DNA of 64,000 nt, taken from Dehalococcoidia bacterium (lineage in GTDB: Bacteria; Chloroflexota; Dehalococcoidia; Plut-88900). Position numbers and translations under genes: made by a program. The notes beneath the pieces are model-generated. The model was not told the origin of the DNA and did no database searches. It worked only from the letters and a program-made list of their open reading frames with translations. The stretch lies in assembly GCA_965197645.1 (NCBI GenBank), contig OZ240219.1:2656001-2720000 (forward strand), in the 5' to 3' direction. Shown piece by piece: positions 19,409 through 24,635 of this stretch. Position 1 is the first letter of the stretch; each line of letters starts with the position of its first letter.

Positions 19409-19519
19409 CGACCATCCCCCTAGCCCCCTTCCTGGCCAGGAAGGGGGCACAAAAAGAGATAAGTTCTGAGGGACACCCTCAGGCTCCCAGCAAAGGGGCT
19501 TAGCCCCTCTGCACACCCC
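19409..19519 (+). repeat. Dispersed MITE/REP-like element, copy A
   Basis: CGACCATCCCCCT..CCCCTTCCTGGCCAGGAAGGGG..TCTGAGGGACACCCTCAG..GCCCCTCTGCACACCCC; three internal hairpins; same module order as 20333-20458. Confidence 0.8.
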
Positions 19520-19566: not shown

Positions 19567-20295
19567 TTACAGGTTGAGGATGGAGAAGGACACCGCGTAA
19601 TCGCAGCCCACCTGCTCTCCGACCGCTGCGGCGCCGAAGGTGAGGAACATCTCGGGATCGAAGCCGCCTTCCAGGTTGTCGATGTAGACCTTGTGCTCCT
19701 TCAGTGAGGCCACTCCCCTATCGATGTAGTCGGTGACGTCGACGTAGTAGGTCGGCTGGGGAGGGTGGCTGATGAATATCCTCTTGACCCCTGTCCAGGG
19801 ATCGTATCCCTCGGCAACCAGTTCCGGGAAGATCCACCGGTTACCGGCGTCGCGGGCGGCGTCCAGCACGGCCAAGCCCACCCAGCGGTGGTCGGCCATG
19901 TTGAAGGTCTCGGAGCCCCAGGTCAGCTCGTGGTTGCCCGAGAGGATAACGTCGGGCTTGTGCTTACGGATGACCCTGGAAATGTCCCGGCGGAGATCGT
20001 TTCCGTATTCGATAACGCCATCGACGTGGTCCAGGAACTCGACGACGTCGACACCCACCACTTTTGCGCTCGCTATCTGCTCCAGCTCCCGGAGGGGCCC
20101 GGCTTCTTCTGGCGCCACCGAGTCGATACCGGCCTCGCCCCGGGTGACCATGAGATAGATCACCTCTTTGCCCTCGTCAGTCCAGCGAGCAATGGCGCTG
20201 GAGGATCCGAACTCCAGGTCGTCCGGGTGGGCGACTATGGCCATCATCTTGTTCCAATCTTCGGGAAGTTCTTGCAGCTCGGGTTGTTCGGACAT
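19567..20295 (-). CDS. PIG-L/LmbE family deacetylase
   Basis: AHPDDLE, TRGEAG, ADHR. Confidence 0.9.
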   Translation of the reverse strand: MSEQPELQELPEDWNKMMAIVAHPDDLEFGSSSAIARWTDEGKEVIYLMVTRGEAGIDSVAPEEAGPLRELEQIASAKVVGVDVVEFLDHVDGVIEYGNDLRRDISRVIRKHKPDVILSGNHELTWGSETFNMADHRWVGLAVLDAARDAGNRWIFPELVAEGYDPWTGVKRIFISHPPQPTYYVDVTDYIDRGVASLKEHKVYIDNLEGGFDPEMFLTFGAAAVGEQVGCDYAVSFSILNL

Positions 20296-20332
20296 CCGTT
20301 ACCTCGCTCTAGTACGGTACTGAAAGGCCTTT

Positions 20333-20458
20333 CGACCATCCCCCTGTCCCCCTTCCTGGCCAGGAGGGGGAAACAAGAGGTTTCTGAGGGACGCCCTCAG
20401 ACTCCCGGCCCCCCAGCAGGCGGTCACAGAAAAAGTGCTCCGCCCCTCTGCACACCCC
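20333..20458 (+). repeat. Dispersed MITE/REP-like element, copy B
   Basis: Same three-module architecture as 19409-19519. Confidence 0.8.
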
Positions 20459-20519
20459 TAGCCTGGTTGACAGGCGGTCTGGGACAAGACGGAGGGTAGT
20501 CTAGCACATGGGACGGCAA

Positions 20520-20890
20520 GGAGACCTGTAAGCCGAGTTCTGTGTCTCGACGGAATCGAGACGGTGGCCATCTATCTAGGCCCGACGTTGCCGGCGGGCT
20601 CAAGCGGCCAACCCGAGGACGGGCCGGGGCCCATAGTCCTCCTATTTGGCCTTGCTCCGGATGGGGTTTGCCCAGCTAGCCGGTCTCCCGGTCTACTGGT
20701 GAGCTCTTACCTCGCCATTTCACCCTTACCCCGACTCGCCGGCCTGAGCCGGCCCATCGGGGCGGTACGTTTCTGTGGCACTTTCCGTAGGGTTTCCCCT
20801 CCTGGGAGTTACCCAGCATCCTGCCCGGTGGAGCTCGGACTTTCCTCTCCGGCCCTTCCGAGGAAGGACTGAAGCGACCACCCGGTCTCC
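20520..20890 (-). ncRNA. rnpB: RNase P RNA (type A)
   Basis: Minus strand has GAGGAAAGTCCGAGCTCC, GAAAGTGCCACAGAAA and ACAGAACTCGGCTTA; terminal P1 helix GGAGACC/GGTCTCC. Confidence 0.97.
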
Positions 20891-20930
20891 ATGCGTCCCG
20901 CTTAAGCGTACTGTAACTGCTCGCAGCGGG

Positions 20931-21350
20931 TCAAACCCGTCTCCGGTCCAGCGCCCGATTGCAGAGCGCGTCGGCGTGGCGGTTCTGCGACCGAGGCACG
21001 TGCCGGATGGTGTACTGATCGAACCGGTCCAGGAGCCGCTGGGCCTCTCCGGCCAGGGACCTGAGGTTCGGCTTCTTGATCCGGTATCCGCCGCTGAGTT
21101 GCTTGACCACCAGCTCCGAGTCCAGCCTGATCTGGACAGAACCGATCCCCAGCTCGAGGGCCTTGGAGAGGGTCTCGATGAGAGCCTGGTACTCGGCAAC
21201 GTTGTTGGTGGTCCTGCCGATGATACGACTCACCTCGCCCAGCACTCCGCCGTTGGGGTCCTGGACTACGCCTCCGATGGCCGCCGGCCCGGGGTTGCCC
21301 CGCGATCAGCCATCGGAGTACACCTGCGCTGTAGTAACCTTCTCCGCCAT
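20931..21350 (-). CDS. Ribonuclease HI family protein with in-frame TGA at codon 15 (Sec candidate or pseudogene)
   Basis: MAEKVTTAQVYSDG*SRGNPGPAAIG...TNNVAEY...DSELVVKQL...HVPRSQNRHADAL; TGA at 21308-21306. Confidence 0.88.
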
Positions 21351-21357
21351 CTATTGC

Positions 21358-22056
21358 TCAGCTTACGTAGAGGATCCGGCTACAGCTGGTACACTGCACG
21401 ACTTCTTGACCGACCCGCGCCCTCTGCACGATTCCGACAGGGAGGGTGATGCGGCATCCCTGGCACATCCCTCGTTCAACCTTGGCTATCGTCGAGACAC
21501 CCTTGGAGCTTCGGACGGACTCGTAGACGCCAACAGCGCCGCGATCGATGGCGGCCGCCAGGCCTTGCCGCTTCTTTCCCAGATCGCTCAGCTGCACTTC
21601 AAGCCTGGCCTTCTCGTCCGCTAGCCGCTTGAGGTCATCGTCCCGCTGGGTCTCCAGGGCGGCGAACTCGGAGGAAGACTCCTCCAGATTGATCCTGGCT
21701 TCGTCCACCTTGTCCATCAGAATCAGGGACTTTTCTTCCACATCTCCTATCTGTCTTTTCAGGATAGCCGCCTCCAGAGCGAAGCCCTCGAGCTCCCGGG
21801 GGTTGGTTATCGAGCCTCCGTAGGCCTTCTGCTCGACCGATTTCAGCTTGGTCTGAAGGTCGGAAAGGGTGTTGTCCACATCTCGCTGTTCCCTGTCCAG
21901 GCCGGCGAGCTCTTCCGTACGACTAGAGACGAGCTGCTTCAGCTTCTTCAGGGCCTCGTCGTCTTCCAGTTGCCGTATCACCTCGGACAAGTCCGATTCC
22001 CGATCGTGGATATCCACGTCCAGAAGGTGCAGCTGATACAGATCTCTGGTGCTCAT
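21358..22056 (-). CDS. Coiled-coil C4 zinc-ribbon protein (DUF164-like)
   Basis: Long coiled coil followed by CQGC...CTSCSRIL. Confidence 0.88.
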   Translation of the reverse strand: MSTRDLYQLHLLDVDIHDRESDLSEVIRQLEDDEALKKLKQLVSSRTEELAGLDREQRDVDNTLSDLQTKLKSVEQKAYGGSITNPRELEGFALEAAILKRQIGDVEEKSLILMDKVDEARINLEESSSEFAALETQRDDDLKRLADEKARLEVQLSDLGKKRQGLAAAIDRGAVGVYESVRSSKGVSTIAKVERGMCQGCRITLPVGIVQRARVGQEVVQCTSCSRILYVS

Positions 22057-22128
22057 GTCAAATCCCAAGGATACAAAAAGGGCCGGGAAACGTTGTTAGA
22101 GATAACGAACGCCACCTCGATTGGTTCA

Positions 22129-22157
22129 ATTCTAAAAACAGGGCTGGGCGGTGTCAA
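22129..22157 (-). promoter_or_regulatory. Sigma70 promoter of the zinc-ribbon/RNase HI operon
   Basis: TTGACA-17nt-TAGAAT. Confidence 0.7.
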
Positions 22158-23744: not shown

Positions 23745-24206
23745 ATGAAGACCATCACCGTCAACCGGAAGGCCCGGCATAACTACCACATTCTCGAAAC
23801 CGTGGAGGCGGGCCTGGTGCTGACCGGAACGGAGATCAAATCGATTCGAGCAGGGCGGGTGAGCATCGCCGAGGCGTTCGCCCGGGCCCAAAACGACGAG
23901 CTCTGGCTTTATAACGCCCACATAGCCGAGTACCCGGGCGCCAGTGTCAACAACCACGAGCCCACCAGGCCGAGGAAGCTGCTCCTCCACTACGATGAGA
24001 TGCGGAATCTCATAAGCAAGTCCGAGGAAAGAGGCCTGGCCCTGGTCCCCCTCAGGCTTTACATCTCGAACCACAGGGCCAAAACAGAGCTGGCGCTGGC
24101 GAAGGGCAAGAAGCTGTACGATAAACGTCGCAGCATTGCCGAAAAGGACGCCCAGCGTAACATTCAGAGGGCGATACGCCGCCGAGTCGGGCAGCTCACG
24201 TCCTGA
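23745..24206 (+). CDS. smpB: SsrA-binding protein
   Basis: NRKARHNY, EAGLVLTGTEIKS, RKLLLH, KGKKLYDKR. Confidence 0.98.
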   Translation: MKTITVNRKARHNYHILETVEAGLVLTGTEIKSIRAGRVSIAEAFARAQNDELWLYNAHIAEYPGASVNNHEPTRPRKLLLHYDEMRNLISKSEERGLALVPLRLYISNHRAKTELALAKGKKLYDKRRSIAEKDAQRNIQRAIRRRVGQLTS

Positions 24207-24278: not shown

Positions 24279-24635
24279 GGGGACGCGTGGGTTCGACAGA
24301 GGGCGGGACTGTTCAGGGTTGCAGGCCGAGGTGCCGTTAACCTCGTAAAACAAGCGGCACAACTGTAACTGGCAACCGTCAGTTAGCAATGGCTGCCTAG
24401 TAACTTAGGTGGTCCGTCCAACCCGGTCTCCCTCGAAGGTTGGGATTGGGCGCCGATAAATCGAGGTGCGGCGGCCCCGATGCCGATAAGGGACGAGTAA
24501 GACATCATCGGATAGCCCGAAGGAACTCGGTCGGTAGAGGTCCGAAGGGCGAAACTCAAAGAGCCGACTAAGCCTGTAGTGGCTCTGGATGGCCCCCTTC
24601 TGGACGGGGAGTTCGACCCTCCCCCGTCTCCACCA
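24279..24635 (+). ncRNA. ssrA: tmRNA; tag (A)GNRQLAMAA at 24371-24400
   Basis: GGGGACG...CGTCTCCACCA acceptor stem with G3-U pair, T-loop GTTCGA, tag ending AA-stop, adjacent to smpB. Confidence 0.96.

Follow-up and report, generated by a model that had tools for sequence, protein, structure and literature searches.

Bacterial selenoproteins, as recent surveys describe them, are redox enzymes that carry selenocysteine (Sec) in their active site, with 111 families counted in 2026 (PMC13326102). The main texts of three recent surveys (PMC13188914, PMC12013277, PMC13326102) name no ribonuclease or other nuclease among them; the supplementary family lists of these surveys, which lie outside this scope, may bear on novelty. 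Here we analyse a stretch of 64,000 nt from the Dehalococcoidia bacterium assembly GCA_965197645.1 (contig OZ240219.1, positions 2,656,001 to 2,720,000 of the forward strand; hereafter "the window", whose coordinates are used throughout unless stated otherwise), in which an accessory type-1 RNase H (RNase HI) gene contains an in-frame TGA two codons past its first catalytic aspartate. An earlier reading of the same letters, referred to below as the original prediction, had proposed Sec insertion, or regulated readthrough, at this UGA and knew of no described RNase H selenoprotein, with which the survey main texts agree. We put the probability that the UGA is a lineage-specific Sec codon at roughly one half.

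Four described systems come close to this locus. By sequence, the gene falls into the same fold family as the archaeal and actinobacterial-type RNase HI enzymes (structures 4e19, 3u3g and 3hst), with its Asp-Glu-Asp-Asp positions intact, and it sits in the zinc-ribbon/RNase HI/rnpB neighbourhood that is conserved in relatives; those enzymes follow the Asp-Gly of strand 1 with Ala or Gly (or with Cys, in three close lineages), whereas the codon here is UGA. With bacterial selenoprotein genes of the fdhF type, represented in this genome by GrdB, SelD, DsbA-like, Prx-like and SelW-like genes, it shares an in-frame UGA, a Sec-competent genome and Cys homologues, together with a hairpin that starts 11 nt past the UGA and has a G-led GGC loop, resembling the selenocysteine insertion sequence (SECIS) of GrdB2 in the same genome, GCGUAGC[GGC]GCUACGC. 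It differs from them in three respects: the Sec would lie outside motifs of the redox kind, such as UxxC or CxxU; Cys is not a conserved residue of the family; and the apical helix is 4 bp long, while 11 of the 18 other candidates of the genome have 6-8 bp. Early pseudogenes with a single nonsense mutation also have a lone stop that is one substitution away from the codon of relatives, in a gene that relatives can dispense with; the present gene departs from them by having no second lesion, no relaxed selection, and a stop that stands in all sampled populations and probably in a diverged relative. Finally, RNase HI genes of Gracilibacteria and Peribacteria have TGA at the identical column, but there UGA is a genome-wide Gly codon (code 25), whereas in the present genome UGA ends genes and tRNA-Sec is the one tRNA able to read it.

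Re-reading of the minus strand recovered the frame of the original prediction: the ATG at 21350 opens MAEKVTTAQVYSDG-TGA-SRGNPGPAAIGG...NRHADALCNRALDRRRV-TGA, that is, 139 codons up to the terminal stop TGA at 20933-20931. Under the standard code the frame is interrupted by the TGA at codon 15, and there are no other stops or frameshifts within the 139 codons. The features of the gene are as follows.

20931..21350, minus strand: accessory type-1 RNase H gene (RVT_3/PF13456 type), 139 codons including one in-frame TGA
21306..21308, minus strand: in-frame TGA, codon 15, two residues past catalytic Asp13, seen in contigs of three studies
21314-21312, minus strand: codon of catalytic Asp13, YSDG motif
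21194-21192, minus strand: codon of catalytic Glu53, NNVAEY motif
21122-21120, minus strand: codon of catalytic Asp77, LDSELV motif
20972-20970, minus strand: codon of catalytic Asp127, NRHAD motif
20961..20963, minus strand: TGC codon of Cys130, in ADALCNRALD, the top covariation partner of column 15
21233..21245, minus strand: first in-frame GTG starts past the TGA, Val36 at 21245 and Val40 at 21233
21271..21294, minus strand: SECIS-like hairpin CC-CCG-GGCC[GGC]GGCC-AU-CGG-A-GG, starting 11 nt past the UGA
21290..21302, minus strand: competing hairpin CGGGG-CAA-CCCCG, +4 to +16 past the UGA

The PF13456 profile (RVT_3, RNase H type) matches above its cut-off with 96 bits, and its alignment crosses the TGA. 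Among solved structures, Halobacterium RNase HI comes nearest (4e19, E 4.5e-34), followed by LC11-RNase H1 (3u3g, 4.5e-30) and M. tuberculosis Rv2228c (3hst, 6.3e-29). D13, E53, D77 and D127, which we take to be the catalytic positions of RNase HI, align to conserved columns of 4e19 and 3u3g, and the YSDG, NNVAEY, DSELV and NRHADAL motifs are all intact. Gene callers use the GTG starts past the TGA and thereby arrive at products of 104 or 100 residues, both without Asp13; as originally pointed out, the start at 21245 leaves out the active site. A 224-codon open frame runs antisense to the entire gene (20775-21449, plus strand); it is most likely no gene but a product of high G+C content.

The TGA itself is real. 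Logan contigs of four sequencing runs were compared with window positions 20600-22100; those of three runs, each from a different study, reach the TGA, and that of the fourth (X9) lies outside the site. X1 (study P1), which may be the source sample, spans 20821-22100 without a single difference, X3 (study P2) spans the same interval with 13, and X4 (study P3) covers 20818-21691 and more with about 19. None of the differences listed falls at 21306-21308, and divergence in the neighbouring gene is about 1-2.5%. A second genome (3.15 Mb) yields the same truncated 100-residue call with a single substitution, G88E (P0003). The TGA thus stands in all populations sampled, and the read check called for by the original prediction excludes a sequencing or assembly error. 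The differences are unevenly spread: within 20818-21378, X3 and X4 each differ from the window at 1 site, against 12 (X3) to about 18 (X4) sites within 21379-22100. This sharp boundary near 21378 suggests a recombination tract spanning rnpB and the RNase HI gene. The low diversity of the RNase HI gene within the species cannot be read as selection, because synonymous sites are silent too; local recombination is the simpler account.

The genome has what is needed to decode UGA as Sec. All four components that the original prediction asked for were found in the 3.21-Mb genome: tRNA-Sec, the selC product (66.4 bits; called SeC with anticodon tca by ARAGORN), selB (346.8 bits), selA (547.7 bits) and selD, the last with an in-frame TGA of its own. 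Among 50 tRNAs, tRNA-Sec is the only one with a UCA anticodon, and there is no tRNA-Gly(UCA). TGA terminates both the zinc-ribbon gene upstream and the RNase HI gene itself, and the other in-frame TGAs of the genome sit at known Sec positions. A de novo codon-usage scan returned 36 pairs of coding open reading frames (ORFs) joined by TGA, the RNase HI frame among them. About 18 of the 36 look like selenoproteins, with recognisable Sec motifs. In 10 of 10 further candidates tested, a Pfam domain reaches the TGA (UGSC, GRDB, GRDA, Thioredoxin_8/NHL, ADH_N, Rhodanese, DSBA, AhpC-TSA twice, and Rdx), the GRDB profile stopping one residue short.

The selenoprotein set of the genome comprises SelD, GrdA, two GrdB, UGSC, three DsbA-like proteins with UPWC or UPYV, a UPHC DsbA, two Prx-like proteins, a SelW-like Rdx, a rhodanese and a Trx-NHL protein; example loci, in contig coordinates, are 2857715-2858800 (minus), 2856087-2857409 (plus), 256539-257858 (plus), 259366-259836 (plus) and 2251577-2253241 (minus). 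A zinc-type alcohol dehydrogenase gene adjoining GrdB1 has a TGA at the Cys position of its GV-C-HSD motif, presumably that of a zinc ligand. Three more TGA-joined frames have good coding scores on both sides: 1709612-1710487 (plus), 2775824-2776666 (plus) and 1494195-1494770 (minus), reading ..MKDNT-U-GIMYS.., ..FCVPA-U-PLDHQ.. and ..FLLNA-U-SPALFE.., with no motif that we could name. A 7-bp, G-led hairpin follows the UGA in two of these three, which are possible unannotated selenoproteins.

As to relatives, the original prediction looked for a conserved TGA or Cys at this column, and one half of that expectation was borne out: Cys occurs in the three nearest full-length lineages, while Ala or Gly prevails elsewhere and, code-25 lineages apart, no TGA was seen in the other genomes examined at the DNA level. 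The Cys forms are P0004 (the closest full-length homologue, 69% identical, annotated as a Dehalococcoidia metagenome-assembled genome), P0018 and the orthologue of genome G002 (L025). An orthologue was found in 27 of 60 relatives' genomes, and the column could be read in 26, with 23 Ala, 1 Cys (TGT, in G002), 1 Gly (GGA) and 1 Ser (TCA). Among 113 database homologues with a readable motif the count is 84 Ala, 25 Gly, 2 Cys, 1 Val and 1 Ser. A maximum-likelihood tree built from 57 sequences gives the family clade a support of 100/94 and the putative TGA clade, (P0005,(P0001,P0003)), one of 100/95; in the sister group of the latter, the three Cys forms are unresolved basal lineages, with the Ala forms nested inside. 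The ancestral codon at column 15 was, judging from this topology, probably TGY. TGA is one step from TGY, and a Cys-to-Sec conversion and a nonsense mutation therefore both predict Cys forms as neighbours.

More weight lies on P0005, a diverged relative found only in Logan. It is 83% identical to the post-TGA part of the gene (P0001) over 102 aligned residues and is called as a protein of 104 residues whose first residue is at column 37 (MGEVSR...). A zinc-ribbon homologue, P0245, is encoded on one Logan contig, 1376 bp long. P0245 is complete (232 residues), is 76% identical to its counterpart in the window and shares the C-terminus ...CTSCSRILYVS. The contig of P0005 is also 1376 bp long, and this equal size suggests that the two genes lie on one contig; together they take up 1014 of the 1376 nt, a geometry consistent with that of the window. 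Since a complete P0245 comes from a contig of this size, the truncation of P0005 would not be due to a contig edge. An interruption upstream of column 37 is thus likely, and P0005 probably carries the same TGA at codon 15. A TGA common to P0001 and P0005 would mean that the gene stayed functional with the UGA inside it; otherwise the two lesions must have arisen recently and independently.

The comparison with P0005 also bears on selection. In an alignment of 201 sequences, the 17 differences between P0001 and P0005 fall in variable columns (Mann-Whitney p 3.3e-5), mean conservation being 0.39 at differing and 0.66 at identical columns, and only 2 of 40 conserved columns (at least 0.7) have changed. 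The part of the gene after the TGA is thus under purifying selection relative to P0005. The RNase HI part is 83% identical where the intact zinc-ribbon neighbour is 76% identical; with P0004, which is the intact Cys form, and the adjoining P0246 the corresponding values are 65-69% and 59%. There is no sign of relaxed selection along the path between the two truncated lineages, because the ratio of identities between the RNase HI and its neighbour is no higher in the P0005 comparison than with the intact Cys form.

Two other clusters (P0138 and P0145) were considered as further UGA clades and rejected: full-length members (P0229, P0233 and P0237, reading DGGSRGNPG or DGASRGNPG) share those clusters, so that their truncations are start-site miscalls. 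Three database-only proteins of another clade (P0123, P0125 and P0147) are likewise N-truncated RNase HI calls of 99-118 residues, on contigs of 3-34 kb, and their clusters have no full-length member.

Residue 15 appears to be tied to one other position of the protein. Across 198 sequences (effective number 120), column 130 is the strongest covariation partner of column 15, with a mutual information of 0.28 after average product correction, which places the pair 5th among those separated by 6 or more columns. Among the 76 rows with Gly15, 59 have Val130, 16 Ala130 and 1 Cys130; Ala15 goes with Ala, Cys or Ser130. Cys130, three residues past the catalytic Asp127, is present here and in all Cys15 forms. 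Covariation suggests that residues 15 and 130 touch, which would make Cys130 a possible partner of Sec15 or Cys15; if so, Sec15 and Cys130 (in relatives, Cys15 and Cys130) could be joined by a reversible bridge at the active site.

The mechanism that we propose would then run as follows. A Cys codon (TGY) may have turned into TGA in this accessory type-1 RNase H gene, which is linked to a zinc-ribbon gene and belongs to a bacterium rich in selenoproteins. SelB and tRNA-Sec would read the UGA, aided by the GC-rich hairpin that starts 11 nt downstream, and the product would be a full-length RNase HI of 139 residues with Sec adjoining the catalytic Asp13. This Sec15 would probably pack on Cys130, one helical turn past Asp127.

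Set against a Sec codon is, to begin with, the poor statistical standing of the hairpin. The structure named by the original prediction exists: under constraints of the bSECISearch type (a G-containing apical loop at 16-37 nt from the UGA) the hairpin at 21294-21271 is the best available, at -14.4 kcal/mol including its outer pairs, so that its fdhF-type geometry stands. Its value as evidence does not. The same stability or better is reached by 10.7% of 2500 random in-frame sites in long ORFs and by 40% of 211 GC-matched coding sites, in line with the caveat, raised at the outset, that GC-rich RNA readily forms hairpins (the 60 nt after the UGA are 77% G+C). The uninterrupted apical helix measures 4 bp, and 64% of GC-matched sites have at least that; the 6-8 bp of 11 of the 18 other candidates are reached by 11% of random and 16% of GC-matched sites. 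An equally stable hairpin occurs in 6 of the 26 orthologues with a sense codon, one of which (L038) has the same GGCC..GGCC stem, there built from Gly-Pro-Ala-Ala codons; the stem looks like a by-product of such GC-rich codons. Left unconstrained, the minimum-energy fold takes the competing hairpin CGGGG-CAA-CCCCG at +4 to +16, of which the original prediction had also warned, and 199 of 200 shuffled sequences fold at least as well (z +1.88). Rfam SECIS families were sought in 20300-21500 with E values as high as 10, and none matched; the search returned nothing but rnpB and chance hits. Synonymous-codon resampling proved powerless, with fractions of 0.007-0.77 in confirmed selenoprotein genes and 0.24 in this gene. 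The SECIS-like hairpin is statistically indistinguishable from chance and, given these rates, the short helix, the sense-codon orthologues, the competing fold and the powerless resampling, carries no weight as evidence.

Other observations point the same way. The base after the UGA (+4) is U, a context absent from the 18 other candidate Sec codons. RNase H does no redox chemistry, and a thiol or selenol at column 15 is unnecessary for catalysis, since Ala or Gly occupies it in 109 of the 113 database homologues and at all 80 loci of a JGI metagenome scan (81 motif matches, 50 Gly and 31 Ala). That scan returned 595 relatives, the best at 55% identity, and neither a close relative nor a TGA form was among the 80 loci kept. 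A scan with the pattern DG-TGA-xRGNPG-(12 nt)-GG across 185,579 species genomes turned up 10 hits and no UGA orthologue outside code-25 lineages: 5 were RNase HI genes of Gracilibacteria/Peribacteria-type genomes and 5 chance matches in unrelated frames. A search of another 400 genomes from the class located the RNase HI gene in 176, and the 150 matches listed include no internal TGA at column 15. N-truncated RNase HI calls also occur without any stop in other clades.

The gene can moreover be lost. Of 9 species in a sister genus (g4), 5 lack it at its place between the zinc-ribbon gene and rnpB through deletion (G005, G003, G007, G010 and G008; loci L141-L145, where rnpB directly follows the zinc-ribbon gene), and G008 keeps a remnant of 15 residues from the 3' end. 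The genome studied here also encodes a canonical RnhA of 166 residues (DGAC...TTNNRMEL...CDS...GHSGNRENERCD) and RNase HII. Loss of the accessory gene is thus tolerated in the family, given these deletions and backups.

Two details of the searches are worth recording. The five code-25-type genes with TGA at the same column are L054, L057, L058, L059 and L060, some of which have more in-frame TGAs. Flags of one TGA in G011, G009 and G004, from the search of the 60 relatives' genomes, and in G356, G308, G231 and G190, from that of the 400, as well as a TAA flag in G025, turned out to be terminal stops; this inspection covered the stop flags other than the TAA flags of G270 and G069.

These points feed chiefly into one alternative, a young nonsense mutation. 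TGY would have become TGA in a dispensable second RNase HI gene, now an early pseudogene that has not yet acquired further lesions; the allele would have been fixed, possibly by a local recombination sweep, the hairpin would be a by-product of GC codons and the truncation of P0005 would be unrelated. We regard this as a serious if not favoured possibility. It asks for a single step, as the original prediction had cautioned and as the TGT of G002 illustrates, and it accommodates a hairpin no better than chance, the UGA-U context, the lack of TGA in the other genomes examined at the DNA level (code-25 lineages apart), the deletions in the sister genus with the remnant in G008, the RnhA and RNase HII backups, a column that takes Ala or Gly in most homologues and needs no thiol, and N-truncated calls that arise without stops in other clades. 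The near-identical tract 20818-21378 fits a recent sweep able to carry a null allele. What this account must explain away is that P0005 would have been truncated independently within the same 36 N-terminal codons, though its contig seems to span the junction. It also has to contend with 139 codons without a second lesion, a TGA in all sampled populations, and a gene that shows no relaxed selection, differs from P0005 away from conserved columns and is more conserved than its intact neighbour, although a very young pseudogene would also pass the tests for relaxed selection and extra lesions.

Alternatively, the UGA could be a leaky stop that attenuates expression, near-cognate readthrough by Trp or Cys giving little full-length enzyme with no true SECIS. 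UGA is the leakiest stop codon, and such a scheme would account for purifying selection downstream of a retained UGA that lacks a good SECIS. It is nevertheless improbable, as U at +4 makes for a strong termination context, Trp would probably be disruptive at a column that takes only A, G, C, S or V and covaries with column 130, the genome has no suppressor tRNA besides tRNA-Sec, and direct support is nil. An artefact or an altered code is barely credible. The TGA that Gracilibacteria and Peribacteria read as Gly at the same column speaks for UGA as Gly; independent short-read contigs of three studies all have the TGA, and a genome-wide UGA-Gly code 25, which the original prediction had already dismissed, is excluded by tRNA-Sec as the sole tRNA with a UCA anticodon, by genes that end in TGA and by the known Sec positions of the other in-frame TGAs. 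Taken together, the reads keep the TGA, Cys homologues exist among the relatives and the Sec machinery is encoded; Sec insertion, as originally proposed, is therefore plausible, though unproven and without help from the hairpin, and a nonsense mutation stays a strong rival.

If the codon does specify Sec, the use of selenium would extend to nucleic-acid metabolism, and the enzyme would be a naturally occurring example of Sec next to a two-metal nuclease centre, where it might act as a redox switch, of which the Cys15-Cys130 pair in the nearest relatives would be the sulfur version. It would also show, in a lineage rich in selenoproteins, a Cys-to-Sec conversion at a non-conserved Cys that used a hairpin supplied by ordinary GC-rich codons. 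The fuller claim, namely a selected Sec codon common to at least two species-level lineages, in the first selenoprotein nuclease, with a Sec15-Cys130 selenenylsulfide gating RNase HI by redox state, is a tentative one that we consider rather unlikely. Should the TGA be a nonsense mutation, the locus would be an ordinary early pseudogene and a warning that bSECIS-type hairpins are uninformative in GC-rich coding sequence.

The neighbourhood of the gene is as the original prediction had it, with a zinc-ribbon gene upstream and rnpB downstream.

22129..22157, minus strand: sigma-70-like promoter match TTGACA-17-TAGAAT, 11 of 12 positions, upstream of the zinc-ribbon/RNase HI pair
21358..22068, minus strand: zinc-ribbon protein gene (PF24481/PF02591), ending in TGA 7 nt before the RNase HI ATG
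20513..20893, minus strand: rnpB, bacterial RNase P RNA class A (301.8 bits, E 1.7e-99), 37 nt downstream of the RNase HI gene

The zinc-ribbon and RNase HI genes are probably co-transcribed. The promoter, originally called strong, is present as a site at 22157-22129; it is a consensus match alone, with 1 such site found against a mean of 0.4 in shuffled sequence.

Two copies of an element of about 110 nt (19409-19519 and 20333-20458), 83-89% identical in three blocks, flank a gene at 19567-20295 (minus strand), the second copy lying just downstream of rnpB. The element contains the palindrome CCCCCTTCCTGGCCAGGAAGGGGG and may be a small repeat or a terminator-like element. About 3 kb from the RNase HI gene, an smpB-like ORF (23745-24206, plus strand) is followed by a tmRNA gene (24279-24635, plus strand) with the tag peptide GNRQLAMAA.

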